Below, piece by piece: positions 14,222 through 56,043 of a stretch of 64,000 nucleotides of DNA. The DNA is taken from UHGV virus genome UHGV-1367859; one strand, 5' to 3'. Numbering within the stretch: position 1 is the stretch's first letter; the number at the start of each line of letters is the position of its first letter. The DNA is from a virus. The translations under genes and the position numbers were made by a program. Under the pieces are notes generated by a model, which was given only the letters and a program-made list of their open reading frames with translations, ran no database searches and had not been told where the DNA came from.

Positions 14222-14293
14222 TGCCACTTGGTGTAATGGTCAGCACATCAGATTTTGGTTCTGAGTGTAAGGGTTCAAGTCCTTTAGTGGCAA
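14222..14293 (+). tRNA. tRNA-Gln (anticodon UUG)
   Basis: Acceptor tgccact/agtggca, D-arm gtg-taatggtcag-cac, anticodon stem tcaga/tctga, loop ttttggt, T-arm aaggg-ttcaagt-ccttt. Confidence 0.75.
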
Positions 14294-14297
14294 CTAT

Positions 14298-16206: not shown

Positions 16207-16214
16207 GATGTATC

Positions 16215-17630: not shown

Positions 17631-17634
17631 ATAA

Positions 17635-17716: not shown

Positions 17717-17720
17717 CAAT

Positions 17721-18292: not shown

Positions 18293-18301
18293 ATAAAATA
18301 T

Positions 18302-18373
18302 TGCCTCATGGTGTAATGGTTAGCACAGAGGACTCTAAATCCTTTGGTCTCTGTTCGAGCCAGAGTGGGGCGA
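18302..18373 (+). tRNA. amber-suppressor tRNA (anticodon CUA), Gln-like body
   Basis: Acceptor tgcctca/tggggcg, 7 of 7 paired counting GU pairs. D-arm gtg-taatggttag-cac is nearly identical to that of tRNA-Gln(UUG) at 14222. Anticodon stem gagga/tcctt, loop ctctaaa with U33, CTA at 18335-18337, and A37. T-arm ctctg-ttcgagc-cagag. Confidence 0.75.
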
Positions 18374-18706
18374 CTAACTTTAATCACAATGAATAAGGAA
18401 GCTTTAAAATGGTTTATGTCCAATGTAATGCTCTAGCTAGAGCAGATTGACAAAGAGGTAAGTAACTCACTGTTGCAGGATGAACAGTTTGTTCTTGATT
18501 TTTATGATAAATTAAATGAAATAAGTGTTAGAAAATAAAAAAAATATAATTATGGAACAGGTAAAGATACCACACCCTATTGCTAGGATGGTGCTAACAC
18601 AGACTAAAATTATTCTTAATAGCCCCAACAACCAAGACAAAGAGTGGCTCAAAACTTTTAAAGAAGAACTTAATAAACTTATTAATCCTGAGTAATCTTT
18701 AGGAAA

Positions 18707-18779: not shown

Positions 18780-18788
18780 CAAGTAAGT

Positions 18789-18859
18789 GCAGGATTAGTT
18801 TAATGGTAAAATGCCACTCTTCCAAAGTGGATTTGGGGGTTCGATTCTCCTATCCTGCT
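18789..18859 (+). tRNA. tRNA-Gly (anticodon UCC)
   Basis: Acceptor gcaggat/atcctgc, anticodon stem ccact/agtgg, loop cttccaa, T-loop ttcgatt. Confidence 0.7.
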
Positions 18860-18865
18860 CTATAT

Positions 18866-18938
18866 TGTGGGGTGTTAGCAGTGGTAGCTAGTCAGGCTCA
18901 TAACCTGAAGGTCGGAGGTTCGAGTCCTCCTCCCGCAA
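18866..18938 (+). tRNA. tRNA-Met (anticodon CAU); the initiator / elongator / Ile2 distinction is unresolved
   Basis: Acceptor tgtgggg/tcccgca, D-stem tagc/gcta, anticodon stem tcagg/cctga, loop ctcataa, T-arm ggagg-ttcgagt-cctcc. Confidence 0.6.
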
Positions 18939-19111
18939 CTAAATCGAAATATTATGGGAGAAGATATGTATAAGAACGGAAAGATAATGAATGCTGTTGA
19001 AGCTCAGACTATCAGGGAGCTAGCAGATTTTGCCAATGATTATAAGATACCTAGGGAGGATGTGGTTTCAATCCTTCCTTCAAGAGAAGGATATGTAATG
19101 GTTTACTACTA

Positions 19112-22174: not shown

Positions 22175-22583
22175 TATGACACTTGAAGATGTAATTGAAT
22201 CACTTAATGTGCATATACTGAATAAAAGAAGAGACTTGCACATCTTGTCAAACAGCCAGGAACACCTTGTTCTACAGAGAGTTATAGAACCTCATCCTAC
22301 ATTTAAGTCATATAAGAGGTATGAGTTTATATTATGGGTGGTTGGTAATGATTCAAAGTATAGATTACTTACTTTGACTAAGCAGGTTAATATGAGTGAT
22401 ATTCCTTCATATGCACAAGAGAGCTTTATTAAAGCTACAGAATCTGAATTTGTTACTGGGCTATTCGGCCTTATTCTAGATGGCAAGTCTTTTAATAAAA
22501 AAGACAGAACAATACTTGAAGATATTATCTATGGAGAATACCTCGGCTATGGAGATGAATGTGTACTAGACCCCCTTGACTGA
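22140..22583 (+). CDS. hypothetical protein
   Basis: 147-aa ORF. Confidence 0.4.
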   Translation: MLRKKQCMKICNMTLEDVIESLNVHILNKRRDLHILSNSQEHLVLQRVIEPHPTFKSYKRYEFILWVVGNDSKYRLLTLTKQVNMSDIPSYAQESFIKATESEFVTGLFGLILDGKSFNKKDRTILEDIIYGEYLGYGDECVLDPLD

Positions 22584-25500: not shown

Positions 25501-26904
25501 TTTTCCCCCACAAAGGGTGAAGTAACAGTAACTAATATACCAGTTGATGAGTACATGCCTATATATAAGGTTAAATTAGCTGATGGCAGAATTGTAGAAG
25601 CTAGTAATAATCATATATGGCTAGTATATAAAGGAACTTCTAGAACTCCTATCGAAATTACTACAGAAGAAATGCTTAGGTCAGGGTTAATAACTAAACA
25701 CAAGCAACATAAGTTTTTTATACCTGAGCATAATGGGGTTGATTATAGTTATAAAGAATTGCTCATAGACCCCTATACTATGGGTTTATTGCTTTCTGAA
25801 GGGAGTCTAACAGGAGGTCATTGTGGCAAAAATTATGTACAGATGTCCTCTTCTAGGGAAGATATGGATTTCTACAAAAAGAATATCCCATATAGAGTTA
25901 ACTATATTGGTAACAAGGGGTACTCTTGGCATATTTATATTCCAGGATGTAGAGATATAATGACTAAATATGGGTTATATGGAGCTACAAGTCACACTAA
26001 GTTCATTCCAAATGAATATCTTTTCAGTAACTATGTTCAGAGAATGGAACTACTGAGGGGAATAATGGATGGAGATGGGTGTGCCAGAACTAGGGGGGCT
26101 AGTGTATTTATTACATGCTCACAGTCACTTGCAAATAATGTATTATCCTTAGCTAGAAGTTTAGGGATGAAAGCATGGCTTCAGACTCCTAAAGAAGGGG
26201 TATATAGAGTGTTGATATCTTCCATATATAAGATATTCAAACTCCCTAGGAAAGTAGTGGAGCAACATACTTATAAGCCTTATAGTAAAGGAAGTAGAGC
26301 CTCAGCTATATTAGGAAAGACTGCGATAGATAGTATTAAATATTCTCACATGGAAATGGGCAAATGTGTCACTGTAGACTCAGATGATGGACTATATATG
26401 ATAGGAGATTATGTAGTAACTCATAATTGTAATAAGAAAGGACTATATGCCTATTTCAATAAAATGAATTGCACACACCTACTGGCAGATACTCCTGAAT
26501 ATTTAAGAGACAAACAGATGATTAAGTATTCTGCCTTTGGCTCAAATGCAAAAGGTATCAATGCGAATGCTACTATCAACAATTATGCTAATAACCTGAT
26601 AAGGGATTGGCTACTTCAGCCAGTTCCAACTATAATAAAGGAGGATGGAGAAGAGAAAGAGGTCAATATTCCAAGGCTCTATTCTCTAAGAAATAGAGCA
26701 TTACTTGAAGAGTTAATTTCCTACACTCCTGAACTTAATGTGGATAGAATCAGGGCATTAGGTATGGTTATGCTGTATAGACAAGAGAAGATTATACTGT
26801 ATAGAGATAATCTTAATGCTAAGGCACAGGAGGAAGTCAGTAGTTCATACTTAGGCAATGATTCTTTCTTCCAAAGGAATTACTCCCAAGGGTATATACA
26901 GTAA
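22576..26904 (+). CDS. terL: terminase large subunit interrupted by two LAGLIDADG inteins; contains 3 in-frame TAG codons
   Basis: The track ORFs at 22576-24159, 24229-25269 and 25384-26904 are all in frame 1, separated only by TAG codons at 24157, 24211 and 25267. Intein hallmarks are C-VCAGTKVWTLDG ... LIGDGSYG ... LYDTDGSI ... VTHN|T, and C... LLSEGSL ... IMDGDGC ... VVTHN|C. The exteins carry a terminase ATPase/nuclease-like sequence. Confidence 0.65.
23557..24678 (+). mobile_element. intein 1 (Hint splicing domain plus LAGLIDADG homing endonuclease)
   Basis: Begins at a Cys (block A CVCAGTKVWTLDG) and ends at ...NIVTHN with +1 Thr. It has two LAGLIDADG-type motifs and contains two in-frame TAG codons. 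Confidence 0.55.
25411..26427 (+). mobile_element. intein 2 (Hint plus LAGLIDADG), N-terminal boundary approximate
   Basis: LLSEGSLTGG and GIMDGDGCA are LAGLIDADG motifs. The C-terminus is DYVVTHN with +1 Cys. The N-terminal Cys could be 25390 or 25411. Confidence 0.45.
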
Positions 26905-29403: not shown

Positions 29404-30318
29404 ATGAGAAAATTTGATAATATAATACATTCAAATTCAGCCCCTCCTACCAATAGTCTGTGGCTCCATAATGACAAACTTCAATACCATAACAATGGCA
29501 AATGGACTGATATAATATTAACGATAGGAGAAGACAATCCAGAGGCTAAGTTAAAGTTTGAAGAGAGAGAACTGAGTCCCCTACATGACTATGTACCTGT
29601 TATACTTGTAAATAGAGACCGCGACGCGCCACTCAAAATTTTAGCAACGTTTTATAATGGTCAAGTAACAGCAATTGCCGATGGCAAGGCTATTATTTTC
29701 AATGTAGACTACAATGAGAATTGGCTTGTAAAGGAGACTAGAATTATTGACCTTACTCTACTTCCTACCTATGTTGACCTTGAACTAGGTGACTCTCCTG
29801 AGATTGAAGCATATAATAGAGAACAGCTGTCTAGGGTGGCAGGAACATAGTTCCTTGTTCATGCTGACTATGGCATTGGAGTAGGTTCTTGGTATTATAA
29901 TGCAGGTGGAGAAGCTACCATCACTACAGCATCAGGTAACAGAGTGCATTACATATTAACTGCGGATGGAGCTTGTAGAAGGGATGCTGACCACTTTGAC
30001 CATTCTGAATTATTTTATGATTTAGGGGTTATTAACTTAGCTGAAATAACTCCTACAACTATAATAAATAAAGAGATAACTGACTCTGTAGGGGTGGCTC
30101 AGTTCAAAAAAGCTTCGAATGTAGTTCTGACTGTTCACACTTCAAATGGAGATTTTGAAGTTAATTGCCCTCAGGTTTCAATGGGTCCTATTCAAAAGAC
30201 ATTTAATAGTCCTAGCATTGTAGCTGGTAATGAAGATAGTTGGAATTATCTTAAGATAATAGCTAACATCCAAACTGACCCAAGCAAAGTATTAATCACT
30301 ATTGAGGCAATGCAATGA
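29404..30318 (+). CDS. virion structural protein candidate (1 in-frame TAG)
   Basis: Track ORFs 29404-29850 and 29944-30318 are in the same frame and are joined only by TAG at 29848-29850. The gene ends with TGA. Confidence 0.5.
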
Positions 30319-31109
30319 GAAAGTTTAGAGCAATAGTACAAACTCCAAAAGAACCATAGGACCATGAAGTCTTATGGTATTGGAAGGGTAATCTACTATA
30401 CTGGAATAATGGAGGTTGGGAACCATTTCATACCAATATTAAAGCTTCAGATATAAAATTTGAGTCTATCTTTTTTGATAATAAAGATAATGTAGATGAG
30501 GTACTAAGGGCATTACTTGAGATAGTTATAAGTAACCAATGGAAAATAGAGAATGCTTTTACAGTAATTGAAGCTGACAATATCCTTACTAATTCATTCT
30601 TTATTGATAGTACTAAGTATTGGTTATCTGAGATTCTTCAACCTTTTACAGTAGGGGCTAAATTTATTAAGGTAGGGAAAGGGTTTCTCTCTAAACAGAG
30701 AGCTAAAGCTGCTGTAATCAGAGAAGATGGAGTTCCTGTATTAGCTGTAAAGGGTTCCACTATACCTTGTACCCTTACTTAGCCTTTCTTATTCTTAAAT
30801 CTGGAAGCAATAGACCCTGATTATAAATTCCCATTCTATGTTACTTTAACATTCAAATTTAAAGGAACTTCATTTGGTAATATAGAAATAGCTACCGTAG
30901 ATTAGGATGGTGAGTCTATTGAAATAAAAGATACTTTGAGAATAGAACCTGATAATAAATGGCACATATATAAAACTACTTTTTTACTTGATAGGTATAA
31001 AGGAATAAGGTTTAATTTAAATGCTGATGTAAGGATAAAGGGGTTAAATATGAGAATGAATGAGGCTAGGACCCTTCATCTCAAGCCAGAAAGTTTAATT
31101 AATAAATAA
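30315..31109 (+). CDS. amber-recoded structural protein
   Basis: Manual translation gives 264 codons with 3 in-frame TAG and a TAA stop. The ATG overlaps the previous TGA (ATGA). Confidence 0.5.
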
Positions 31110-31152
31110 TGTAGATATGACTAAATAGGAAAAGGATGAACTATTTAATGAG

Positions 31153-32214
31153 TTGCTAGCTTTTCTCTCTAGGTCTTCAGTAAGTGTTGAAGACCTTCCA
31201 GAGGCTGGCAGCTTAGATGATGTGAATAGTTTTCCTGCATATAAGAAAGACTCTAAGGAGCTGGTAACCATTCCTTCTAGTGCTCTTAAAGAAGCTTCAA
31301 ATAAAGCTGATGCAGCTGCTCAGTCTGCACTTAGTGCATCTTAGCAATGTATGATTGCTGGAGCTAATGCTAACAATGCTGTATAGAGAGTCAACTAGAC
31401 CTTGAATTCTTTGCCTGGTTAGGTAGAAACACTGGTTAATAATTCTACTAGTGCACAGTCTAATGTAAATTCTAGAATTATTAATTTCTATACAAGTAGA
31501 CCTTCTTCTAATGCACTTGAATTAGAAATAACTGTATCAGAAAATGATTATAGAACTTTTGAATAGCTTCTGGAAGAAGAGTATGACTATGCTGATAGTT
31601 ATGACCATAGACCAATAATATTTACAGTTCTACAGAATAATGGTGTACCTAAGTATAGGAAGATTGTTTATGACAATAACCTTAGGGATAGTTAGAACTA
31701 TATTGACTATGACTTAAGTGGACTTCATGAGAGAATAGATACTCTTGACAGTAGGGTTCCTTATGATGCAGGAATAATAGAACTAGATTTAGTAAGTCAA
31801 GGAGAAACAACTTCCAAACAGGAAACTTTATTGCCTTCTAATAAAAATTATTTCAAATTTATAGAGATACTAGAATAGAGGGATAATAGGACTGTGCTAT
31901 GTACTATTGTCCCATCTAAAACTTAGGTAGGAAGTCCTTATACTGGTTTCAGATTCTTATGTTCTCTTCATAAGGATGGCTATGACTGGTCTATTCTTAC
32001 AGGTAAATATATTGATGTTGGTGAGGATGCAATAAACATTTATTATCTTTGTATTAAATGTTATAAGCCAACTTTTGGAGTAGGTGATGGGATGAGTATA
32101 TTAAAGTATCCTATTAAACAAGTAACTATTAGGCTTACTGAAGGTGAAGGAGATGGTCATTGTACAGAATTGTAGGAGATTAAAGCAACTGAAATAGTTG
32201 AAAAAATGATATAA
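31153..32214 (+). CDS. amber-recoded structural (tail-fibre-like) protein
   Basis: 353 codons with about 10 in-frame TAG and no TAA/TGA until 32212-32214. Confidence 0.5.
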
Positions 32215-32237
32215 TAAATGATAAATGAATTTTAAGT

Positions 32238-33295
32238 ATGGAAATTGAATATTTAGGAAAAAGCTCTTTTAATAAAATATAGAACTAGCTTCAGCTTCTT
32301 AATTCCTATAGTGAATGGAAAGACATCACTGAAGAGTGTGTTCATATTGGATATAAAGTTAATCCACAGATAGTTCCTTAGGATTTGCAAGAAGGTAATG
32401 ACATTTTTGTGGAAGATGAAAATAGTATTGCAATAAATGCTGTAAGCCTCTTATCAGAGGATGCTACTTGGTGTGGTGACTTGAACGTTGCGTATAACTT
32501 TAAAATATTAATTTAGCCTAAAGCTTCTTCTAGCTCTGACATGGGTTTAATTGCTCAAACTATCTTAAGTAAGGATTTTGTTGGAAAAACCCTCGTAGTA
32601 AAAGCTGCTAATATTGGAGAGGAAGTGGAAGAGGATTACTCCATATAGGACATAACAGTTAGTGAAGTTTTAGAAAATGGACTTACATATAAATAGAGGG
32701 AGAGCAGGTTTTTCAATGAGAAGGAGCAATTTGTGGCAAGCCTAATGGTAAGTTAGGCAGTAGTATCTTTCCATTATAACCAGGAATATAAATACAAGGT
32801 AGTTTACAAAGACTCTGTCTTTACAACGCCAGCCGACTTTGTAAATAAAATGGTATATGGAGACGCTCCTTTTAGTATGATTGGTTAGAAGCTCTCCTCC
32901 GCAACTTTCAGTGATGATACCGATTAGATAAGGACCCTCTGGCCATAGGGTTGGGCCTCTTTTATAGTTGTTCCAGTATATGAAGGCGAGCCGAATGGTA
33001 ATGTTAAGTCAGGTCTAAGAGTTGAATATTATAGTGGTGATAACACTAAACATGAAACTATAGTGGACAATACATCATACCAGTCTATATATGGTTAGAC
33101 TGATTATCTTATTATACCAAAAGTAAAAGGAGCTACCTAGTCAGACTACCTAGTTATAGGTAGGATTGACTCAGCTTTTAAACCAGTGGGAGTTGAAATC
33201 TATGAGATGACTGCTCCTTATAGATAGATTGTCGATAGGGTAAGTGATGTAGACTATAGAATCAGAGAATTAGAAAAGTAGCTGAATGCTACATA
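32238..33295 (+). CDS. amber-recoded structural (tail-fibre-like) protein
   Basis: About 352 codons with about 15 in-frame TAG, terminating at TAA. Confidence 0.45.
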
Positions 33296-33317
33296 AATAT
33301 AATATTTTTTTTTCTAA

Positions 33318-35519: not shown

Positions 35520-36419
35520 ATGGAAAAAACTTATGTTTTTGACACTGCCGACAGAGGTGGATTTGATTCTACTGCACTCTTAGCAAGTCTAATGGGTAAC
35601 AGAGGTGTAGACCCTAATCTAATGGCTATGCTCACTAATGGCTCCAAGAACCAAGATGCTTGGGGAGGTGGAGGAATGTGGTGGATTTGGGTAATCATTA
35701 TGTTCTGGCTATGGGGTGGAAATGGTAGAAATGGTATGTTTGGTAATGGTGCTGCTGATGGTATTCCTAATCAGCTTAATAATGATTGGGGTAGAGAAGT
35801 ACTTCTTCAAGCTATCAATGGTAATGGTCAGGCAGTTTCACAACTTGCCACAACTCTTAATTGTGATGTTAATGCCCTACAAGGTGCTATAGGCAATGTA
35901 CAGAACTCTGTACAATCTGTAGCTAGTCAGCTTGGTATGACAGGTCAGCAAGTTATCAACTCTATTCAGCAAGGTAACTGTCAGTTAGGTAATCAAATGG
36001 CCCAGTGCTGCTGCAATATTCAAGATGCCATCACTAGGACTAACTATGAGAGCCAACTTTCTAATGTAAATCAAACCAACACTCTACAGAATGCTATTAA
36101 CTTTGTTAATAGTTCAGTGGAGAGAGGGTTCTCATCTACAGCCTATGCTACTGCACAGCAGACTTGTGACCTAAAGAATGCTATTGCACAACAGACCACA
36201 CTTATTAATGATAAGTTCTGTCAGCTAGAAATGAGAGAAATGCAGAATAAGATTGATGCTCTAAGACAGGAGAACAGCCAATTAGCTCTAGCTGCTTCTC
36301 AGCAAGCACAAACTGCTAATATCATTAGTCAAGTAAGACCTACCCCAACTCCTGCTTATGTAGTTGCAAATCCTTATTGTAACTGTGGTAGCCCTTATAC
36401 TAATGGATGCAATTGTTAA
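35520..36419 (+). CDS. Gly/Asn/Gln-rich, Cys-containing structural protein
   Basis: Low-complexity GGGMWWIW...GGNGRNG and CCCN / CNCGSPYTNGCNC cysteine clusters. Confidence 0.45.
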   Translation: MEKTYVFDTADRGGFDSTALLASLMGNRGVDPNLMAMLTNGSKNQDAWGGGGMWWIWVIIMFWLWGGNGRNGMFGNGAADGIPNQLNNDWGREVLLQAINGNGQAVSQLATTLNCDVNALQGAIGNVQNSVQSVASQLGMTGQQVINSIQQGNCQLGNQMAQCCCNIQDAITRTNYESQLSNVNQTNTLQNAINFVNSSVERGFSSTAYATAQQTCDLKNAIAQQTTLINDKFCQLEMREMQNKIDALRQENSQLALAASQQAQTANIISQVRPTPTPAYVVANPYCNCGSPYTNGCNC

Positions 36420-36437
36420 TTTCTAAAGTATACAATT

Positions 36438-36869
36438 ATGGCAGTAACAGTTTCACCAGTAGGATTAGCCACTGCTCCAGTGGCTAATGAGTTAGCCTTC
36501 ATGGCTACTTACAAGGAAAAGCTATGCCGTCCGTTCTGTGTAGATTCAACTATACAACCTCAGGTATCTGTAGTTTATACTACAGGTACCCCAAGGTTGG
36601 TTGAGACAACTGTCTTTATCCCTGTCAAGGCAGTGATAACAGTTGTAACTCAGAATAGTCAGTGTGGTTGCAATGCACATACTCAGCTATTTACTGAAAA
36701 CTTTGTAGTTGCATTCCAGGGTCAGACTGCTCTACCTACAACAGTAACACTTACCAATGTGGGAAGAGACCAGTTTGGGTCTAATATAAATTGTGGATGT
36801 GCTTTCTCATACACAATAAATGACTCTCTGACTCTTGCTATAACACCACCTGCTGCACCAGCGGCATAA
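36438..36869 (+). CDS. hypothetical structural protein
   Basis: 143-aa ORF. Confidence 0.4.
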   Translation: MAVTVSPVGLATAPVANELAFMATYKEKLCRPFCVDSTIQPQVSVVYTTGTPRLVETTVFIPVKAVITVVTQNSQCGCNAHTQLFTENFVVAFQGQTALPTTVTLTNVGRDQFGSNINCGCAFSYTINDSLTLAITPPAAPAA

Positions 36870-36895
36870 ATTTAACCAACTAAATTATCAACAAT

Positions 36896-37408
36896 ATGTT
36901 TTCCAACTTAAGAACTAACAGTCAGATATACATACTGCACAAAGAATCTACCCCCTATGTTGAAGTGGGTCAGGTACTGAGTGTTTCACAACCTCAGCCT
37001 AGATTCCCAGTGGCTAACTTCATGAACCCTCAGGAACTCGTAGTAGATGTTGTAGTGAGGATAAATGGTAATGATGTTACATTGCAGAAGCTTCCTGCAA
37101 ACCTTGATGTTGCAGACCAAGGAACTTCTAACGGAGCTTTGGTTATAACTACATCAAGAGAAGCTATGAATGCAGAGGTAGATTCACTCAGACAGAAGAG
37201 TCTTGGCATCCTTAATAGTGTAGATTATCATAAGAAAATAGTTCAAGATTGTGAAGTATTACTTCAAAGATTAAATCCAGAGTTTGCAGAACAGAAACAA
37301 CAAAAGCAAGAGATAGATATGCTGAAGTCTCAGATGTCTGAAATGATGACAGATATGAAAGAATTAATGGCTCAGCTTAAGTCAAAGGAAAGCACAACTA
37401 AATCATAA
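36896..37408 (+). CDS. hypothetical protein (coiled-coil C-terminus)
   Basis: 170-aa ORF. Confidence 0.45.
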   Translation: MFSNLRTNSQIYILHKESTPYVEVGQVLSVSQPQPRFPVANFMNPQELVVDVVVRINGNDVTLQKLPANLDVADQGTSNGALVITTSREAMNAEVDSLRQKSLGILNSVDYHKKIVQDCEVLLQRLNPEFAEQKQQKQEIDMLKSQMSEMMTDMKELMAQLKSKESTTKS

Positions 37409-39359: not shown

Positions 39360-40874
39360 ATGGCTGGAAAACTGAATAAGTTCCAAATGATTGGCTTTTC
39401 TCACTGGAAAGGTCTGACAAAGGACAACCACCTTGGTCAAATCTTCCAGCTTGCTCCACAGAAGGCAACTAACCTAATGGTACAGCTATTAGCTTGGTAT
39501 AGAGGTAAGACTCTTGATACCTTCCTAAGCCAGTTCCCTACAAAAGAGTTTGAAGATGACTCAGAATATTACTGGGATGTAATTGGCTCTACCAGAAGGA
39601 ACATTCCTCTGCTTGAAGCAAGAGATGAGAATGGCAATGTAGTAACCGCAACAACTGTTGCCAATGTGGGTGTTGGTACAGCTGTATTTGAGCTTGTCTT
39701 CCCTGAAGACTGGTTTGCTGATGGTGAAGTAATTGTAGGTAATCTGAATGAAGTATATCCCATGAGGATTCTTGGTAATCCGAGAATGGAAGGTACTAAT
39801 GCAGTTTACAAGGTAGAGCTAATGGGTGGAATAACCCAAGGTATTCCTGCTGAGAGACTCCTTCCAGGAGAAAGATTCAGCTATGAATATGCTCCTGTAG
39901 AAAGAGCACTTTCAAGGAAAGTTGGTGATGTTAGATTCACTTCTCCCGTATCTATGAGAAATGAATGGTCTACCATCAGAATCCAACATAAGGTACCTGG
40001 CAATATGCTCAACAAGAAACTTGCATGTGGTATTCCTGTAACAAAGGAAACTCCTACAGGTTACACTAAGTCTGTGGTTAACATGTGGATGCACTATGTT
40101 GACTGGGAAGTTGAACAGACATTCTCTGAATACAAGAATAACATTCTTGCTTTTGGTAGAAGCAATAGAAACAACAATGGAGAGTATCTGAACTTTGGTA
40201 AGTCAGGTGAAGTTATCAAGATGGGTGCTGGTCTGTTTGAACAAATGGAAGTAGCAAATACCCAATACTACAACAAGTTCAGTCTGAAACTTCTTGAAGA
40301 TGCTCTGTATGAACTGTCTGCATCCAAGCTTGACTTTGGTGACAGGTACTTCGTCATTAAGACAGGTGAAAGAGGTGCTATACAATTCCATAAGGCTGTA
40401 CTTCAGACTGTAAGTGGATGGACTCAGTTCACACTTAATGGTGATGCTCTGAATGTTGTTGAGAAGACACAAAGTACTCTTCATACTAATGCTCTTGCAG
40501 CTGGCTTCCAGTTTGTAGAGTACAGGGCACCTAATGGTGTAAGAGTGAAGCTTGATGTTGACCCATACTATGATGACCCAATAAGAAACAAGGTACAACA
40601 CCCTGATGGTGGACCTGCCTTCTCTTACAGGTATGACATCATGTACATTGGTACTATGGACCAGCCCAATATCTTCAAGTGTAAGATTAAGGGACAAGAT
40701 GAGTTCAGAGGTTATCAATGGGGATTGAGAAATCCTTTCACAGGTCAGCTTGGTAATCAATTCATGTCATATGATGAAGATTCAGCTACCTTCCATAGGA
40801 TGGCTACTCTTGGTATTTGTGTTCTTGACCCAACTAGAACAATGTCACTTATCCCTGCTATACTACAGGGCTAA
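39360..40874 (+). CDS. major capsid protein candidate
   Basis: 504 aa with no TAG. It follows the scaffold-like gene and is followed by a very strong terminator. The assignment is by context only. Confidence 0.45.
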   Translation: MAGKLNKFQMIGFSHWKGLTKDNHLGQIFQLAPQKATNLMVQLLAWYRGKTLDTFLSQFPTKEFEDDSEYYWDVIGSTRRNIPLLEARDENGNVVTATTVANVGVGTAVFELVFPEDWFADGEVIVGNLNEVYPMRILGNPRMEGTNAVYKVELMGGITQGIPAERLLPGERFSYEYAPVERALSRKVGDVRFTSPVSMRNEWSTIRIQHKVPGNMLNKKLACGIPVTKETPTGYTKSVVNMWMHYVDWEVEQTFSEYKNNILAFGRSNRNNNGEYLNFGKSGEVIKMGAGLFEQMEVANTQYYNKFSLKLLEDALYELSASKLDFGDRYFVIKTGERGAIQFHKAVLQTVSGWTQFTLNGDALNVVEKTQSTLHTNALAAGFQFVEYRAPNGVRVKLDVDPYYDDPIRNKVQHPDGGPAFSYRYDIMYIGTMDQPNIFKCKIKGQDEFRGYQWGLRNPFTGQLGNQFMSYDEDSATFHRMATLGICVLDPTRTMSLIPAILQG

Positions 40875-40875: not shown

Positions 40876-40920
40876 CAAAATAAGGGGGAGAGAGCAATTC
40901 TCTCTTCCCCTTTCTTTAAC
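40876..40920 (+). terminator. rho-independent terminator
   Basis: Hairpin gggggagagag-caat-tctctcttcccc followed by tttcttt. Confidence 0.65.
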
Positions 40921-44507: not shown

Positions 44508-44546
44508 ATAAGGGAGGTCAAAAGCCTCCCTTTTTTATTTTATACA
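44508..44546 (+). terminator. rho-independent terminator
   Basis: Hairpin gggaggtcaaaagcctccc followed by ttttttatttt. Confidence 0.65.
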
Positions 44547-45345: not shown

Positions 45346-46035
45346 CTAAATATAATCTTAGTGCAAAGGTAAGCATTTTTAGTATGGTTAGAGGAATTAT
45401 ATACAGATATTTATCTCCTAGTGGGAAGTCTTATATTGGACAAACTACTAATGAGAAACTAAGACGAAGAAGTTGGATGTCTGATAAATACCACTATGCT
45501 GGAGCTAAAATAGATAGAGCCAGAGCCAAGTATGGTAGTAGCTCATTCTTATATGAAGTATTATATATCTAAGAAGCTCGCAATAGAGGACCTAAATAGA
45601 TTAGAAATATACTACATAGGGCTTTATGATTCATATAGGAATGGTTATAATTGTACTATAGGTGGGGATGGAGTCCAAGGATTCAATATGAGTGTTTCTC
45701 AAAAAGAGCATCTCAGGGAATGTAATCTAGGAAAGAAATTATCTGCATCTACGAAGAGAAAGATAGGAATTGCTTCTAGAAGATGGCAAAATACTCCAAT
45801 TAATAGAGGAAGGATGTCCTCTATAAGAAAAGGCAGAAAAAATCCGAATGCAATAGCAGCAATGACCTTAGCTAAAGAGAGACCTATATTGCAGTTCACA
45901 ATGTCTGGTGAGTTTATTAGAGAGTTCCCCAGTATTAAGGCAGCTTATGAGTTTCTTGGTAAAGAAGGTAACATAACAAGTGTGTGTAAAGGTAGAAGAG
46001 CCTCTGCCTTTGGCTATGTATGGAAGTATAAATAA
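45330..46035 (+). pseudogene. GIY-YIG homing endonuclease split by a frameshift
   Basis: ORF 45330-45572 carries IYRYLSPSGKSYIGQT (GIY-YIG). ORF 45532-46035, in another frame, carries YNCTIGGDG plus NUMOD-like repeats. Together they make one GIY-YIG protein interrupted by a +1/-1 shift. Confidence 0.5.
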
Positions 46036-46787: not shown

Positions 46788-47495
46788 ATGAAAGAATATT
46801 GTTTATATAAACATACCACCCCATCAGGCAAAGTATACATAGGTATAACCAGCCAAGACCCACTTCACAGATGGAACAATGGTAAGGGTTACTTTAACTG
46901 CAAGAACTCTCCCTTCAAAAATAGTATAATAAAGTATGGATGGGACAATATAACGCATGAAATACTTTATACTGGAATGACAGAACAAGAAGCTATAAGT
47001 AAGGAGAAACAATATATAGCCTATTATAAAAACTTAGGGGTCAGTCTTAATATAACAGATGGGGGAGAAGGATGCACAGGGGTTACTCCTTGGAACAAGG
47101 GTATTAAAGTTCCTTATGAAAAATCCAATAAGAGAAGGGGATGTACTCTTACAGAATCTCATAAGAAGAAGTTGAGTATAGCCCATAGAGGAAAATCATC
47201 TAGAGGTTCTGGATGGAAAATGAGTGAGAAACAAAAGGAATGTCTTAGACAAGTAAATCTTGGTAGGAAAAGACCTATGTGTGAAAGGTTGAAAATATCT
47301 GAGAACTCACCAATGTCTAAGATTGTACAAATGCTTGATAGGGAGGGAGAAGTACTAGCTGTGTACAAATCAGCTACAGAAGCAGCCTTAGCTCTAGGAG
47401 TAGATAAATCATGGTTAAGTAAGTGTTGCAGGACTGGTAAGCTTTGCAGAGGATACAAGTTCAAATATGGAGGAGTTCAGAAAGAAGGTACTTAA
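46788..47495 (+). CDS. GIY-YIG homing endonuclease
   Basis: LYKHTTPSGKVYIGIT ... NITDGGEG with C-terminal NUMOD-like repeats. Confidence 0.75.
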   Translation: MKEYCLYKHTTPSGKVYIGITSQDPLHRWNNGKGYFNCKNSPFKNSIIKYGWDNITHEILYTGMTEQEAISKEKQYIAYYKNLGVSLNITDGGEGCTGVTPWNKGIKVPYEKSNKRRGCTLTESHKKKLSIAHRGKSSRGSGWKMSEKQKECLRQVNLGRKRPMCERLKISENSPMSKIVQMLDREGEVLAVYKSATEAALALGVDKSWLSKCCRTGKLCRGYKFKYGGVQKEGT

Positions 47496-47991
47496 AGTAA
47501 GTGAGTCAAGAGTCTATAGAGTGAATAACTCATATGGAGTATATGATGCCTACAAGTATATCAGAAAGAACAAGTGGTTTGATATAGGACAACCTGTCAC
47601 AGAGCATCAGTTCTACTCCATTATAAGAAGAATGAATAACCTCCTTGCTGATACACTCATACATGGACATGACATAGAACTGCCATGCAGGATGGGTACC
47701 ATAGAGGTAAGGAAGTATGATGCAAGAGTCTCAATTGAAGATGGCAAGGTTAAGACAAACCTTCCTATAGATTGGGACAGAACACTTAAACTATGGTCAG
47801 AAGATGAGGAAGCCTATAAGGAAAGAACACTCATTAAAATGGAGGAAAAAGAAATCTTCAAGGTCTACTATAACAGGATTGATGCAGACTACAACAATAA
47901 ATCCCTCTATGAATTTGTAGTGAACAGAGACCTTAAAAGGAGATTGAAGCAAAGAATTAAAAGTGGTAACTTTGATGCTTTTAAGATATGA
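47467..47991 (+). CDS. hypothetical protein
   Basis: 174-aa ORF. Confidence 0.4.
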   Translation: MEEFRKKVLKVSESRVYRVNNSYGVYDAYKYIRKNKWFDIGQPVTEHQFYSIIRRMNNLLADTLIHGHDIELPCRMGTIEVRKYDARVSIEDGKVKTNLPIDWDRTLKLWSEDEEAYKERTLIKMEEKEIFKVYYNRIDADYNNKSLYEFVVNRDLKRRLKQRIKSGNFDAFKI

Positions 47992-48686
47992 CAAAATATA
48001 TAAGCATAAGACAAGTTCTTGATAACCTGATGGATAATCCCTTGCTACAAGATTTATCTTTAGAAAGGGCAGTCAATTATGCTGTCAGGTTCATACAGAA
48101 GGTAGGTATGCCCTCAATATTCCTTGAGAAAACAGAGAAGGTTGAGATAGAGAATTATAGAGGTAAGCTACCTTGCGACTTCTATGAAATGATACAGGTA
48201 AGAGCAGTTGGTCATAACTGTAATGGAGTACTTCATGAAGTATTCAGATACTCTACTGATTCATTTCATATGAGTCCTGATAAGACAAGAGATAATGACC
48301 TTACCTATAAACTACAGGGAAGTTGTATTTTTACTTCTATGAAGGAAGGAACTATAGAAGTAGCTTATAGAGCTTTCTCGACAGATGAAGAAGGATTCCC
48401 TCTCATACCAGAGAATGGTTCTTTTGAGGAAGCACTTGAGCTATTTATAAAGGTAAAACATTTTACAGTTCAGTTTGAGCTTGGTAGGATAACTCAACAG
48501 GTTCTGCAACACGCAGAACAACAATATGCTTGGGCAGTGGGTCAAGCTCAGTCTGACCTTGTTAGGCCCTCTATTGACCAACTCCAATCTTTCACTAATT
48601 CTTGGAATACTTTAATCTCCAGGACTAATGAGCATAGCAAAGGGTTTAAAACTCTTGGTTCTAAGGAGTATATCAAACTTCATTAA
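47988..48686 (+). CDS. hypothetical structural protein
   Basis: 232-aa ORF. Confidence 0.45.
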   Translation: MTKYISIRQVLDNLMDNPLLQDLSLERAVNYAVRFIQKVGMPSIFLEKTEKVEIENYRGKLPCDFYEMIQVRAVGHNCNGVLHEVFRYSTDSFHMSPDKTRDNDLTYKLQGSCIFTSMKEGTIEVAYRAFSTDEEGFPLIPENGSFEEALELFIKVKHFTVQFELGRITQQVLQHAEQQYAWAVGQAQSDLVRPSIDQLQSFTNSWNTLISRTNEHSKGFKTLGSKEYIKLH

Positions 48687-48696: not shown

Positions 48697-51600
48697 ATGA
48701 TGTATTCAGATAATCATATATTTAAAGGCCTAAGGAGAGATGTTCACCCATCAAGACAAGATGAGTCTTTTTTATGGGATGCTTTAAATGTGAGACTTAC
48801 TAATAGGGATAGTGATACTGGGTTTTCTATCACTAATGAGAAGGGAAATACGGACACTGGTGTTGTTTTTGATGGGTAGTACGTAGGACATTGTGTGCTT
48901 AATAGATACTTAGTAGTATTTACTGTAAGTTAGAATGACACTCAGGAAGTATCTAGAATATATAGACTCCATGAAGATAAAGGGGAGTGGATTAAAGTTA
49001 CTCTATTTGAAGGAGTGCTAGGTCTTGATGCTAATCACCCTCTAGAAATATTAGGGGATAGTGAGTCAGTTCTTGTGAATAAGTTGTATTGGACAGATGG
49101 AATTAACCAGCCTAGAGTTATTAATATAACTGCCCCAGAGTTGAAACTTCCTGAAGATATAGCTAGTAAAGTTATAGTAGACGGAGTTAATTTCTCAAAT
49201 CCATAGAAAAGTGAGGGAGTTTCCTAGGAAGTTATAGAAAATCTAGAAAAGTGGTATGAAAAAGGAAATTGGATATACAGAGCTGAGTCTCCATTTGATT
49301 TTGTATAGAACCTATAGTTAAAAGAAAGAGTACTGGTAGGTAGAAGTTCCAGTCATGGAGAATTTTCTCCTGGAGTAATTCAATATGCTCTTACATACTT
49401 TAATAAGTATGGGCAAGAAAGTAACATATTCTATGTATCTCCCATATAGTATATAAGGAATTATGATAGAGCTGGTAATCCAGAAGAGAAGGTTATAACT
49501 TCTTTCACAATTAAAGTAGAAAATGTTGATAACTTTGATTATATAAGGGTTTATTCTATACATAGAACTTCACTAGACGCATAGCCTACAGTTAAGATTG
49601 TAGCTGACTTAGACTTAAAAGATTGCTAGGAGGAAAGTGCTGAAGGAGAATACTGGTATGATGTGTTTGGTTCTGAGGATTAGCTGGTAAAAACAATTGA
49701 ATATACAGATACTGGTCTTACTGGTTCAATAGAAGACCCTGCTAAACTATTATATACTGGGGGACAAACAATATTAGCTGGAACTATCACTAGCAAAGAA
49801 GGAGTGATGTTTTATGGAAACATTACTGTTCAGAAAAATACTAAAGAACTAACTACATTACTTCAATAGGAAGAGGCTGAAAATGGGGACTCTTTAGGGT
49901 TAACAGATTGTTTTTTAGCCGAAGATACTTATGATAATTAGGGTATAAATAAATACTATCCTTATCTACCATAGTTTAAGCCTGGTCATTTTAAGGCAGG
50001 AGAAACATATAGATTAGGAGTTCAATTTTAGTTTAAGACTGGAGAATGGTCAGAACCTATTCCATTAAACAAAGTCATAAGGAATAGTGATGGTGATGGT
50101 GATGGTTTTCTTGATGTAGAGTTAAATAATTCATATTCTTGGGGCACTATTGACGGGGTGGATACTAAGGAACTTTAGTTATTCCCTAATGCAACTGCCT
50201 CATTATTAAAAGCTGGAGTAAGAAGGGCTAGAACTTGTGTTGTTTTCCCTAAGCCAGCGGAGAGAAATATTATATGTTAGGGAGTTTTAAATCCTACTGT
50301 CTACAGTGTGAGAGGAAGGCACATGAATAACCCATATGCAATGTCATCTTGGTTCTTTAGGCCATCTCCTGTATATGTAGATGGAAAGCCAAAAGAAACC
50401 TCTACCTCGATAGATTAGGGGTCGACTATTTAGTATAAACATAATTATACACTTTTCAGTGGAGGTAATAGAAGTGCTGAAATATAGTCATCTCTGCCAG
50501 GAGATTCCAATAAGTCAATATAGGAAATTATTTCTCCCTCTGATGGTATAAAGTCTCATTATTCAACTTTTGCTGTTGATAGTAACTTAGTTACTTTACA
50601 TTCCCCAGAAATTGAGTATGGGTCCTATATAAATACTACTCAATTAGAAGGAGCAAGGCTAAATATTGTTGGAGCCGCTAGCCTACATGGATTGTATGGA
50701 GATATAGATTTAGCAGTGACCTCTAAAGCTAGTTCTCAGGCTGGAGGATTTATACATCATCCTGTAGGATTTCCAGTGAACTGTACTACTCCTAATACTA
50801 CTGTTAATGGAGGATTTGTATCATCATGTTGTTTTGAAGATAAAATACTAAGAGGGGATTTTTTAGATGAGGATAGGACAGGTATTGTTAAATATTTAGT
50901 TTATCCTTGGCATAGAACAGGCTCACTAAATAATGATATTGTCAGGTCTCCTGAGATTATAGAGAAATCCGGAAGTGATAGAACAGCTATACTAAAATGG
51001 AAGATTATTTCCAATTTAAAGTATTTTGAAAGTAAGTCAACTTTTTTTAACTCTAATAACCACAATATTAAAATTACAACTCCTAAGTTATTCTCTTCTA
51101 AAGAGGTTACAGGCTTAACTGTTCGTGTTCCACATTTAGACTAGGATGTACTATACTTTGGAAATGTAGATGATATTGTATCAGCCACATCAGATTATCC
51201 TATTTATGCTGGTACTGATGATAGTATTTCACAAGTATCCCCTACTAATGTATCTACTTCTGGGGAGTCAGTAAGAATGAAGTATAAATCATCTCCTCAC
51301 TTAGTATTCTCTTTATATGATGAGGATAACCCTAAGGTTATTCCAGTACTACCATACACTTCTGTTACTGGTGAGACTATAACTTCATAGTATACCCCCT
51401 CTGGATGGGAGAATAATACTTCTACCAGTACTTCATATCCTATCCTTTCATTTATAGGCTCAAAAACCTTTTATGGGACTTATAACAAAGAGGGGAACTT
51501 AGTACTAGATGTTGACGATACAAGTGTGACTGCTCTAGGAACCTATCAGATTGTAATGGCTTACATTGGATCCATAGCTAAGCGTGTATTGGTTAAAAGG

Positions 51601-53466
51601 GTAAAGATAGGAGAAGCAGGGTATTGGCAGGTACAAAACTCAGGAACTAAAGTGACTGTTTTAGTGAAGAAAGGATGTATAATCTATCATCACTATGTAA
51701 ATGGTGAGTGGGTAGGAGTTCTTCAGAATGCGGGGCCAATAAAATGGGGTCCTTTTGAAAACTTACAGGATGGTCATGATAACTTTTAGTATCTTGGGGA
51801 TTAGGTATTATTAAACTTAAAGGTATCTCTCGGAAATATAGTTGGTATTACATCTTATAAAATGTATTCAGAGCCATCTACAGATAATACAGATAATACA
51901 GATAATACAGATAATACGTTTACCATCCAGAATAGCACTCTGTAGTTACTTGAAGAGGATAAAGATTATTCCCCCACATTACCTATAGCTGAATTAACAT
52001 AGTGGGTTGACCCAGACACTAGGTTTGGAGGTAAATCGGATGAAGCTATCAAAAATAACTTATGGGTTCCAAGTAGTGAGTCAGTTCCTCTTGTATCAAC
52101 TCCACATAAGATAATTACGATTCCTTATGCCTATGGGGATACATGGTGTACAAGATATGATTGTGTAAAGACTTATCCTTTTGCAGATGATGATACTAAT
52201 TAGATAGTAGAAATAGGTTCATTTATGCTTGAGTCACATATTAATCTTGATGGAAGATACGATACTAAAAGAGGGCAGCTATCCAACTTCGACATTACTC
52301 CTGACTCTTATAAGATAAATGAAGTATACTCTTAGTTAGATAACTTCTTTAACTACAGAACACTAGACAAGGACTATTATAAAATAGATACATTTCCTTA
52401 CTAGGTAGCATGGTCCTTAAAGAAAAATCCCTAGTCTATAATTGACCCATGGACTAATGTCACTTTAGCTAGTACCTTAGACCTTCCTGCTGATAAAGGG
52501 TCTGTAACATGTCTAACCTCCATCAATGATACTCTTATTGGCTTCTAGGAAAAATCTATTAGCTAGATTATGTTTAATTCTAGAGTATAGCTCAATCCTA
52601 CAGACGGAGTACCTATTGAGATAGGAAATTCAAACAGAGTAGATGGGTTCAGGATTCTATCCTCTACTATTGGATGTGCTAATAAATGGTCTATTATTCC
52701 TACCTCAACAGGTCTATTCTTCATAGATAACGAGTCCAAAAGTATTTATAGATATGGTTAGGAATTAGTAAATGTAAGTGAGCTTTCAGGAATGAGTTAG
52801 TGGGTTAAGAATGATGTTGACTTATCAGAGTGGACTCCTACAGGAATGGGAGTAAGAAGCTTTGTTGATAATATGAATGGGGATGTATATTTCTCTCCAG
52901 CTCATGGCGAAGAAGCTTTATGTTTCTCAACTAAGCTTAACTAGTTCACTTCCTTTTTAAGTTATGGTGAAACTGAAGGTATGTTTGACTTTGAAGGTGG
53001 TTTTTACTCTATAAAATAGGAATAGGATAAAGTTAGGCTATGGGAGAACTTCACTGGGGTATATAATGAGTTCTATGGTAACTTTAAACCATTTAGTTTC
53101 ACTTATATATCTAATGGTAATTCTCCTTACACAAAAATTTTTGACACAGTGGAAGTTAATGCTGAAGTACGGAACTTTGGCCAAAAGGATAATTCTGATA
53201 AGCCATTTGATTTTATCCAAGCAGAGAATGACTATTAGAAAGCTTATACTGACCTCACTAATAGTAGAGATATAAGGAAGAAGTTTAATATATGGAGGAT
53301 TAATATTCCTAGGTCTCCTTATGTAGCACAAGATGGTAAAGATGTTATAAGGCACTATGGTAGGGCAAGGATTAGAAATCCATGGAGTGAAATAACTCTA
53401 GGGAGTGCCTCACATAAAAACTAGAGAGTGACAATATATAATGTATCTACTAAGTACTCTATGTAA
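48697..53466 (+). CDS. giant tail-fibre/tailspike-like protein, about 1,590 codons with about 50 in-frame TAG codons
   Basis: Frame 1 stays open from ATGATG at 48697 to TAA at 53464-53466 with no TAA/TGA. It absorbs the track ORFs 48628-48879, 49015-49206, 50692-51144 and 51526-51789, which are all in this frame. It carries DNT and DG repeats and is followed by a terminator. Confidence 0.6.
51888..51923 (+). repeat. 4 tandem copies of a 9-bp repeat (gataataca) inside the tail-fibre gene
   Basis: gataatacagataatacagataatacagataatacg encodes (DNT)4. Confidence 0.6.
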
Positions 53467-53467
53467 T

Positions 53468-53512
53468 TAAAAAGGTGTAAGAAAAACCTTACACCTTTTT
53501 AATTAATTGTAT
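53468..53512 (+). terminator. rho-independent terminator
   Basis: Hairpin aaaaggtgtaag-aaaaac-cttacaccttttt. Confidence 0.55.
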
Positions 53513-53516
53513 TATA

Positions 53517-53555
53517 CTATTGTATTAGTGGGATATTTTTGCTACATTTGCATAC
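53517..53555 (+). promoter_or_regulatory. Bacteroidetes-type promoter (-7 TACATTTG; spacing to -33 about 23)
   Basis: TACATTTG at 53543-53550 upstream of the ATG at 53569. Confidence 0.35.
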
Positions 53556-53568
53556 AAAATTCATTTAG

Positions 53569-56043
53569 ATGGCAAAGAAACTTATTAAAAAAAGAACAAA
53601 TAAACTCCTTTTTGGGAGGAATAATTATTTTGCATGGGGAGGTACTCCTGATTATCTAGCTGGAATACCAGGTATGGATGATGCTTTTTCTATGCCTGGT
53701 ATTAGAGAAACTATGCCTGGAGAAGCTATATCAACAGGGCTGCAAGCTCTTACTAAAACTACTCAACCAACTGCTGCTTCAGCAACCCTTCCTCTTCCAC
53801 CATCTGGAACTACTAATCCATCCTTAGGACTTACTCAATTGGGCAAACAGGGTATAGGACTAGGAAGTGCCTTAACTGGTTCAATTGTAGGTAATGTAAT
53901 TGGAGGAAAAAGGTCTAGTGCAGTAGGAAATGGAATTAGTAGTATAGGCTCAACTGTAGGTGGAGCCTTAATGTCTGTAAACCCAATGGTTGGGGGTATA
54001 GTAATGGGAGCAAGTTAGCTACTTGGAGGAGTTACTAATAACTTATTTGGTTCTGAAAGAAATGAAAAACTTATAAGTTCTTTAAATAATCAAATATCCC
54101 AGGCTGGACAGTTTAAATCAAGTGCTACTGATTATGATGCTTTAGCTTAGGAGATGGCTACTGCTCCAACAGTTGGATACTTTAATCATGATGATTTAGG
54201 CAGTTAGGGTGCATTTAGTCATGATATAGATGATTTATATTAGGATATGAGCAAAAGAGCTGATACTGCTAGGCAATATGTTAGTTCTTCTTTAGAAAAT
54301 GCACAGTATAATATAGGATAGACTAGGAAGAGGGATATACTTAGAAACATAGCCTCATATGGAGGTCCATTGTACTTTGCAGAAGGTGGAGGAATACATA
54401 TTAACCCAGAGAATAGAGGTAAGTTCAATGCTACTAAGAAGAGAACAGGAAAGACTACAGAGGAATTAACCCATAGTAAAAATCCTTTAACTAGAAAGAG
54501 AGCTATATTTGCTTAGAACGCTGCTAAGTGGCATCATGCCTTTGGAGGAGACCTTATGACACATGGAGCTGACTTTGATACAGGACTTGTTCTTGTGGGT
54601 AATGGAGGTACACATGAAGAAAACCCTAATGAAGGAGTTCCTATGGGAATGGATGCTGAAGGCATTCCTAACCTTGTAGAAGAGGGAGAAGTTATCTTCA
54701 ATGATTATGTATTTAGTAACAGACTAAGAGTTCCAAAAGCAGTAAGAAAGAAATATAAACTAAGAGGAACAAAACCTCTCACCTTTGCAGATGCTGCTAT
54801 TCAAATGAGCAAAGAATCTGAAGAGAGGCCTAATGACCCTATAAGTCAAGCAGGTCTTGTAGATAGTATGGCTAAGTTGATGTCAGTACAAGAGCAAGTA
54901 AGAACCAAAGGTGATAAGAACAAGTTTGCAAAAGGTGGTAAGATGGGAAGAGTCTATGCTGGTGAGCAAGGAGACCCTTATTCTAACCTACTAGCTTTAG
55001 GTTTAGGTCCCATAAATCCTTCCTTTACTACATTCGGTTTTGATAGTCCTACCCCACAAGATACCCCAGCACCAAGAAATAAAATGGGCATTGTACTTGG
55101 AGGATACACTTCAAATCCTACTGTAATAAAGCCAGGTGAATCTACTATACCAGGAATAATTAGAACTAACAATACTAAATATCCATCTCCTCCTCTTATA
55201 AATAAAAAAGATTCTATTGGAGATAGCACATCAACTGAACTGGCTCCTACTTGGATGAGATATGTACCTGCATTTGCTTCTGGTGTAATGTCTATCACAG
55301 ATGCACTAGGTTTGACCAATAAACCTGACTATGGAGAAGCAGAAGCTGCACTTGAAGCATCAAGAGGAGCAGGCAACTATACTCCTGTAAAATTTAGTCC
55401 TGTTAGTAACTATTTAACCTACAGACCTTTTGATAGGGATTTCTATATTAACAAACTCAATGCTCAAGCTGGAGCTACTAGGAGGAGTATCCTTGATACT
55501 TCAGGAGGTAACAGAGCAACTGCAATGGCAGGGCTTCTTGCAGCTGATTATAATGCACAAGGAAGGATGGGAGACCTTTTCAGGCAAGCTGAAGAGTATA
55601 ACCTTGCACAGAGACAAAAAGTTGAAGAATTTAATAGAGCAACTAATATGTTCAACTCTGAAGGAATATTCAAAGCTGACCAAGCTAACCAAGCAGCACA
55701 GCTTCAGGCAAGGTCTGCATCTCTTAAGGGAGCACTTACTGCTGCTGAACTCAGACAAAGAGAGAGACAGCAAGCTGCTGCTGCTAGGAGTGCTAATCTA
55801 TCAAACTTTATCAACTCTATTGGTGATATTGGCAGGGAGAACTTTTCAAGAAATATGATTATAAGCGACCCATCTAAGTACTATAGCATCGGGGATAATG
55901 GAGAAATTTCCTATAAAGACCCCTTCTATGATTTATCCGAAGCAGAGCAGGATTATGTAACTGGCCATGCTAGTAGAAAGAGTAAAAGCAAAGGTAGTAC
56001 TAAGAAAGCAAAAGGTGGTTATTTAACTATAAATAGAAAATAA
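53569..56043 (+). CDS. large virion protein with a Gly-rich N-terminus (tail-associated candidate); about 6 in-frame TAG in the first third
   Basis: Track ORFs 53569-54018 and 54556-56043 are in the same frame. The intervening 540 nt is open apart from TAG codons. It ends with TAA. Confidence 0.5.

Follow-up and report, generated by a model that had tools for sequence, protein, structure and literature searches.

A TAG-rich muzzle protein gene in a crAss-like phage, read with TAG as glutamine, and the probable recombinational origin of its TAG load

In crAss-like phages late genes may be recoded under genetic code 15 (TAG to Gln), with suppressor tRNAs present (Yutin et al. 2021, PMC7886860). 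Switches of code between close relatives and TAG preferences of gene families have been reported (PMC7886860; 10.1101/2021.08.26.457843; Peters et al. 2022, PMC9523058), and Gln at TAG positions was shown by proteomics in other crAss-like phages (PMC9523058). The muzzle protein gp44 of phage crAss001 forms a tail-tip hexamer of ~1 MDa (Bayfield et al. 2023, PMC10172136); the ring proteins are dodecamers (PMC10172136). This protein is built of a ring-joining domain, a seven-bladed propeller, two Ig-like domains (IG1 and IG2) and a ‘crass fold’; its role is to gate the tail channel, it probably touches the cell surface, and its length varies among phages via insertions in the IG2 and crass regions (PMC10172136). 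Here we describe a gp44 orthologue encoded at positions 48697-53466 of a 64,000-nt stretch (the window) of the virus genome UHGV-1367859, a gene that an initial annotation had called tail-fibre-like. The muzzle family (Bayfield et al. 2023) and amber recoding in Steigviridae are already known. New here are a deeply divergent muzzle allele and a clear case in which TAG density follows recombination blocks and phages with near-identical capsids differ in whether they have the suppressor.

In a blastn search the window was placed among crAss-like phages, e.g. IAS virus and crAss001 (both Steigviridae); the window is from a crAss-like phage (Crassvirales) whose nearest named relatives are Steigviridae. 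The gene and the neighbours needed for the argument are as follows (MCP, major capsid protein).

48697..53466, + strand: muzzle protein gene, orthologue of crAss001 gp44; 1,589 codons plus TAA; Gln codons 40 TAG, 12 CAA and 10 CAG
47988..48686, + strand: ring protein R1 gene, orthologue of crAss001 gp43; no TAG; ~92% identical to standard-code sister phages
53569..56043, + strand: cargo protein C1 gene, orthologue of gp45; six TAGs, all at 54016-54514
39360-40874: MCP gene

With TAG read as Gln, the protein aligned with crAss001 gp44 at 39% identity over 1,327 collinear columns, from the N- to the C-terminus. Its sole match among solved structures was ‘Muzzle protein gp44’ (PDB 7QOK, 7QOL, 8CKB; phmmer E=8.5e-213), its PHROG matches were ‘virion structural protein’ families and it could be aligned with 69 full-length muzzle homologues. 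Gene order is as in crAss001 (MCP, gp33, R4/5, R3, AUX, R2, IHF-like, R1, muzzle, gp45, gp46, gp47), with the gene for the gp47 RNA polymerase subunit continuing past the window end; the muzzle gene holds the same place between R1 (gp43) and gp45, an arrangement shared by those IMG/VR loci in which both flanks are covered. Judged by its sequence, the product is a full-length orthologue of the muzzle protein, the predicted tail-tip gatekeeper; alignment to the solved gp44 suggests the same five-domain layout (ring-joining domain, 7-bladed propeller, IG1, IG2 and crass fold). The earlier label ‘tail-fibre-like’ is wrong. A tail fibre or a beta-helix adhesin was considered and rejected: there was no fibre or tailspike homology, and the repeats amount to two very short runs.

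The likeness to crAss001 gp44 is full length and collinear, with the N-terminal segment and the C-terminal third conserved; by our mapping, most of the difference in length is accounted for by the IG and crass-domain regions, a trait of the family (PMC10172136). The window protein differs in being 218 residues longer (1,589 vs 1,371), with DNT and DG repeats, and in having TAG at 65% of its Gln codons; the code of crAss001 is the standard one. The window allele is known from sequence; the solved hexamer structure is that of crAss001 gp44. Muzzle proteins are hypervariable within Crassvirales. The GenBank label ‘stabilization protein’ goes back to proteins of the T7 nozzle gp12 and P22 gp10 type, which likewise sit at the distal end of the podovirus tail; however, most of the muzzle (IG1, IG2 and the crass fold) has no counterpart there, and a PDB search with the muzzle protein gave no direct sequence match to proteins of this type.

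The frame starts with ATG at 48697 and stops with TAA at 53464-53466; translated with TAG as Gln it runs for 1,589 sense codons, 40 of them TAG, and is interrupted by neither TAA nor TGA. The initial annotation had put the number of TAGs at about 50, or one per 30 codons, which is too high (the actual density is one per 40 codons), but it was right to see one long recoded gene, the most heavily recoded in the window. As the other five frames of the same interval contain 59-183 TAA/TGA each, a frame open save for TAG is far from a chance occurrence. An independent IMG/VR contig (L005, positions 10001-14746) has a copy of the gene that is 99.8% identical in nucleotide sequence, with 40/40 TAGs kept, so the TAG-laden frame is not a sequencing artefact. 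The two copies differ by nine substitutions, nine nonsynonymous and none synonymous, all of them in-frame replacements, eight of which lie within residues 481-974; a 1-codon indel and two DNT repeat units make up the further differences. The 9:0 pattern hints at diversifying selection on exposed loops, although it is not statistically significant alone (chance of ~0.08, a hand estimate that takes about three quarters of random changes as nonsynonymous).

To identify the residue placed at TAG, we aligned the muzzle protein with 69 non-identical full-length standard-code homologues, which gave 32 usable TAG columns. Q was the commonest residue in these columns (30.7% vs 3.3% background). Seven TAGs occupy invariant or nearly invariant Q columns (445, 528, 597, 1213, 1284, 1298 and 1514), and TAG is present at 7 of the 10 invariant Q sites of the muzzle. 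The window also contains a candidate decoder.

18302..18374, + strand: suppressor tRNA, anticodon CUA, Gln-like, labelled ‘Pyl’ by ARAGORN; located between tRNA-Leu(tag) and tRNA-Thr
14222..14294, + strand: resident tRNA-Gln(UUG), the closest paralogue of the suppressor in the window

The Q-rich columns, the seven conserved Q sites and the Gln-like tRNA(CUA) agree with the earlier proposal to translate TAG as Gln, and by these comparative data TAG is Gln here (genetic code 15). The tRNA is presumably charged with glutamine and able to outcompete release factor 1 (RF1). Among 33 late-gene stops, 30 are TAA, three are TGA and none is TAG. The base 3′ of TAG is distributed as it is after CAA/CAG (p=0.5), which gives no hint of special contexts for read-through. 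On the − strand, the early genes contain no in-frame TAG that is clearly internal; in the early open reading frame (ORF) at 9378-9767 (− strand) the sole TAG is codon 109 of 129, and it may be a genuine terminator that is then read through once the suppressor is active.

The standard code cuts the frame into 41 pieces, and this fact, together with the ARAGORN label, could be taken to mean that the locus is a string of short ORFs or a decaying pseudogene, or that TAG stands for another residue, e.g. pyrrolysine. We consider such explanations extremely improbable. The collinear match to gp44 continues through all 40 TAGs, 1,589 codons contain no internal TAA or TGA, all TAGs are kept in L005 with 9/9 substitutions being in-frame replacements, and reading of TAG as Gln was proven by proteomics in other crAss-like phages (PMC9523058). 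Pyrrolysine decoding in particular was rejected: the tRNA is most like tRNA-Gln and the Gln-like CUA suppressors of phages, and the TAG columns are Q in homologues, although no search was aimed at Pyl biosynthesis genes.

The suppressor and the resident tRNA-Gln(UUG) are identical at 49/73 positions overall and at 23/26 positions in the 5′ part. Identity to CUA tRNAs of other gut phages is higher (59-62/73), thus suggesting that the suppressor was imported. In the window there are 23 tRNA genes, 21 in an array at 14222-18939 and two on the − strand at 8672-9082; the spacer from tRNA-Leu(tag) to tRNA-Thr is 898 nt long and is shorter in the sister phages. A search for the exact sequence of the suppressor returned the L005 contig only. 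In addition, 77 IMG/VR contigs (L165-L240), many of 140-190 kb, contain tRNAs that share the Gln-like D-arm of the suppressor and have a CUA anticodon loop; identity to the suppressor is 59/73 in 34 of them, and those inspected are nearly identical among themselves. Phage amber suppressors of this kind seem to form a widespread family.

Use of TAG is distributed very unevenly among the late genes, where TAG accounts for 94 of 553 Gln codons (heterogeneity chi2=218, df 30, p=2e-30). The muzzle gene has 40/62, compared with 54/491 in all other late genes (Fisher odds ratio 14.7, p=1e-19); values for some of the others are 0/23 (MCP), 0/15 (R1), 0/28 (gp46) and 2/50 (portal). The steep gradient noticed in the initial annotation is therefore real when the TAG share is compared with CAA/CAG gene by gene. 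The count of two TAGs in the portal gene was the same as ours; the three assigned to the terminase are in the extein parts of TerL, and two more are in an intein. A second TAG-rich region was found at the position of the crAss001 fibre/spike genes.

30315..33296, + strand: three TAG-rich ORFs with 3, 10 and 14 TAGs (43-67% of Gln codons)

These three ORFs lie almost wholly in DNA without homology to sister phages. PHROG and Pfam searches of these ORFs, of the ORF at 13055-14089 and of neighbouring ORFs gave no matches. A ‘fibre’ role is assigned from position only. The ORF at 13055-14089 (344 codons), just upstream of the tRNA array and outside the main structural block, has low GC and seven TAGs (44% of Gln). 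TAG density may also change within a gene. In gp45 there are 6 TAG and 9 CAA+CAG in codons 1-377 vs 0/19 afterwards (p=0.004), with all TAGs in the first 316 codons. The most divergent central part of the muzzle gene, codons 611-1030 (50527-51786), has 2 TAG vs 8 CAA/CAG, while the rest has 38 vs 14 (Fisher p=0.0025); the muzzle gene itself may be mosaic internally.

For comparison with relatives we fetched 79 muzzle-centred and 80 portal-centred loci from IMG/VR. Four sister contigs (L008, L013, L006 and L010) have MCP 97.8-98.6%, R1 89-92% and gp33 92-94% identical to the window proteins, whereas their muzzle proteins are 42-46% identical. In the muzzle-centred loci the sisters have no TAG in any of the ten genes scored, the intron-interrupted MCP stretch of L006/L010 excepted. 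Their tRNA array has the same order and lacks tRNA(CUA) between tRNA-Leu(tag) and tRNA-Thr, where L005 has an identical copy. Phages with MCP 98.4-99.4% identical carry three muzzle alleles that are 42-47% identical to one another.

The boundaries of the divergent DNA do not coincide with gene boundaries. DNA homology to the sisters (80-90%) ends at 48925, 76 codons into the muzzle gene, and restarts at 54358, inside gp45.

48926..54357, + strand: TAG-rich block of 5.4 kb with almost no DNA homology to the standard-code sisters (two 65-70% patches left)

This block, i.e. muzzle codons 77 to the end and gp45 codons 1-263, holds 44 of the 46 TAGs of both genes. Protein identity to L008 changes accordingly along the region: 92% in R1, 63% in muzzle residues 1-76, 38% from muzzle residue 77 to the end, 28% in gp45 residues 1-263 and 78% from gp45 residue 264 to the end. 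Over the late genes, TAG makes 14/251 Gln codons in DNA homologous to the backbone, compared with 80/291 where homology is lacking (p=4e-12). The sisters have CAG or CAA opposite 11 of the 14 backbone TAGs, and at four of these 11 sites crAss001 has Q as well; the backbone TAGs look like recent in-situ CAG-to-TAG transitions. Divergence alone does not create TAGs, because the non-homologous interval 35520-37408 (0/56 Gln codons) and gp46 (0/28) hold none.

The window and L005 are mosaics of each other, with blocks of ~100% identity (including 47.9-54.7 kb) alternating with blocks of 60-93%. We looked for a donor of the muzzle allele in several ways. The IMG/VR single-protein scan found only L005, the IMG/VR profile scan returned 79 loci, all <=46% identical, a search with the gene in six segments gave no closer match for any part, and a JGI metagenome scan gave nothing closer.

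With a probability of about 70%, we interpret the locus as a single muzzle gene, with TAG read as Gln by the phage’s own suppressor, whose TAG load is mainly an ancestry mark of a swapped-in block. The gene would be translated whole, to 1,589 residues, with tRNA(CUA) at 18302-18374 reading UAG as glutamine. The full-length yield would be r^40, where r is read-through per codon, and ~98% would be needed for 50% full-length product; with such scaling, near-complete reassignment of UAG would be required in the infected cell. The muzzle from about codon 77 and the first ~263 codons of gp45 would constitute a recombinationally replaced block that came from a lineage long under TAG=Gln (code 15). 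TAG at 7 of 10 invariant Q sites suggests equilibrium usage after a long time under code 15 rather than a recent shift. The backbone, with nearest sampled relatives that use the standard code and lack the suppressor, would have acquired no more than a light scatter of recent CAG-to-TAG changes. By analogy with the ring-joining domain of gp44, the N-terminal segment of the muzzle, which is closest to the backbone, might dock on the backbone ring, and, just as speculatively, the N-terminal part of gp45 may travel with the muzzle it binds. Selection may also play a part: TAG might be avoided in abundant capsid proteins and tolerated or favoured in those of the tail tip.

The initial annotation had offered two explanations of the gradient, tuning of expression to suppressor abundance or different gene ages. 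Different ages or origins are strongly supported, since TAG density follows the boundaries of recombination blocks that cut genes, and the sisters lack both TAGs and tRNA(CUA). Under regulatory tuning, the 40 TAGs would have been selected so that the muzzle is made only once suppressor tRNA has built up, again with yield r^40; the rationale is that the muzzle is needed at six copies per virion and last in tail assembly. Preference of gene families for TAG in crAss-like phages was reported and so interpreted by Borges et al. (10.1101/2021.08.26.457843). Consistent with tuning are the excess of TAG over CAA in the muzzle gene (40:12), the hexameric state of the muzzle vs dodecameric ring proteins, and 0-1 TAG in the MCP, AUX and gp33 genes here, with none in the recoded relatives L009 and L077. 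Nevertheless, we regard tuning as unlikely. Orthologous muzzle genes of sisters with the same virion design have no TAG, and TAG density shifts inside genes at the breakpoints (muzzle about codon 77, gp45 codon 263), not at gene boundaries. The four families found preferentially recoded by Borges et al. were an amidase, a spanin, a ‘tail tube’ family and one of unknown function, none identified there as muzzle. Moreover, R1, R2, R3 and gp46 have no TAG here, while in L077 TAG makes 54-78% of their Gln codons; function thus predicts TAG load worse than ancestry, with ring genes being TAG-free in one phage and TAG-rich in the other.

Drift in situ, with no import of the allele, could produce a gradient as well: in fast-evolving muzzle and fibre genes, AT-biased C-to-T changes would turn CAG to TAG after the gain of the suppressor, fastest under weak constraint. 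The hypervariability of the muzzle, the true in-situ CAG-to-TAG changes in backbone genes and the anticorrelation of TAG fraction with gene GC (rho -0.66, p=0.002) all fit such a process. As the sole cause we find it very unlikely, since it requires ~55-60% amino-acid divergence in the muzzle against 1.4% change in MCP, and it has to accommodate the abrupt step from 28% to 78% within gp45, the absence of TAG from equally non-homologous DNA (35520-37408 and gp46) and the presence of TAG at 7 of 10 invariant Q sites.

Several observations speak against the replaced-block interpretation. Because no donor lineage was found, we infer the direction and the source of the transfer; apart from L005, the closest muzzle homologues are 40-46% identical, recoded or not. 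Given the correlation with GC, fast in-situ divergence and AT-biased mutation could contribute. A neutral CAA<->CAG<->TAG model predicts parity between TAG and CAA, from which the muzzle ratio of 40:12 departs (p=1e-4), so that TAG may be selected for to some degree, or the tRNA pool may be biased. In the recoded relatives L009, L062 and L077, capsid-associated genes have no TAG and tail genes have many; ancestry alone does not account for such a pattern by function. Finally, ~37 kb of the genome beyond the window may hold release-factor or aminoacyl-tRNA-synthetase genes.

Compared with described code-15 crAss-like phages, the window is similar in that in-frame TAGs are confined to late genes, a tRNA(CUA) is phage-encoded, the code switches among very close relatives and TAG use differs by gene. 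It differs in that the top TAG gene is the muzzle, not one of the reported amidase, spanin, ‘tail tube’ or unknown families, in that TAG density can be mapped to recombination blocks cutting through genes, and in having sisters with 98.6%-identical MCP that are devoid of the suppressor and of TAGs. The last point shows, in a clear-cut natural case, that the code can change over a very short evolutionary distance, with the suppressor present or absent. Uneven TAG density should not automatically be read as regulation, because such unevenness can record recombination history. There is a practical side too: standard-code gene callers would split the 4.8-kb gene into ~40 pieces and miss the main tail-tip protein.

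A further possibility, which we think quite doubtful, is that recoding acts as a compatibility lock, with TAG-rich host-interaction cassettes (the muzzle with the N-terminal part of gp45, and the fibre genes) needing genomes that have a suppressor. If so, tRNA(CUA) and host-range modules would be gained together, and recoded and standard-code crAss phages with near-identical capsids would be partly isolated for tail-tip recombination. Were the link between suppressor and TAG-rich modules general, recoding would shape which crAss phages swap receptor-contacting parts.

Two short tandem repeats were detected in the muzzle gene, and a hairpin was found at its end.

51879..51917, + strand: 9-bp tandem repeat TACAGATAA x4.3, encoding DNTx4 (51883-51918)
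50087..50106, + strand: 6-bp tandem repeat x3.3, encoding DGDGDG (50089-50106)
53464..53505, + strand: perfect 18-bp AT-rich hairpin, terminator-like, overlapping the muzzle stop codon

The 9-bp repeat had been placed at 51888-51923; the repeat exists and encodes four DNT units, its true span being the one given above. The other run had been read as DGDGDGDG and has only three DG units. DNT copy number varies, with four units in the window and two in L005. By our reading of the alignment, mapped on the gp44 boundaries (PMC10172136), both repeats probably belong to the variable part, the IG2/crass-domain region. Such short repeats are no evidence for a fibre fold.

Of the flanking signals noted earlier, the terminator was confirmed. 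Hairpins on the + strand directly 3′ of late genes number three, those of muzzle, MCP (40882-40912) and AUX (44510-44532). As for the promoter-like motif, none was seen directly upstream. Matches to sigma-70-like promoters around the gene were no more frequent than in shuffled sequence (25 seen vs 26.3 expected), and the gap from the R1 stop (48686) to the muzzle ATG is 10 nt, so that R1 and muzzle are probably co-transcribed. The closest Bacteroidetes-type TAnnTTTG motifs are at 47967 (ahead of R1) and at 53534/53543 (ahead of gp45), a motif only mildly over-represented (49 seen vs ~35 expected). Together these data weakly suggest an R1-muzzle transcription unit ended by the hairpin at 53464-53505.

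Some other features of the window and its relatives are worth recording. The TerL ORF (22411-26904) has 1,497 codons vs 762 aa in crAss001. In-frame insertions at 23557-24677 and 25423-26430, the first with 2 TAGs, are absent from sister phages; since they match Pfam families Intein_splicing, LAGLIDADG_3 and Hom_end, TerL probably contains two inteins. Intein content differs between the window and the near-identical relative L084. ORFs resembling homing endonucleases (like crAss001 gp37/gp18) lie amid the late and structural genes at 20980-21645, 45496-46035 and 46788-47495, each within a stretch missing from, or different in, relatives. The interval 35520-37408 consists of three ORFs without DNA homology to the sisters; the first (299 aa) is very rich in Gln, Asn and Cys and has a hydrophobic Trp/Gly-rich segment near the N-terminus. 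In L006, L010 and L017 the MCP match extends over ~780-800 codons with many stop codons of all three kinds, which suggests an intron or other insertion within the MCP gene. At ~10,000-10,500 both GC skew and the coding strand switch: the − strand genes at 1-10.2 kb, which are orthologous to crAss001 gp86-gp94, point away from the + strand block of tRNA and late genes.

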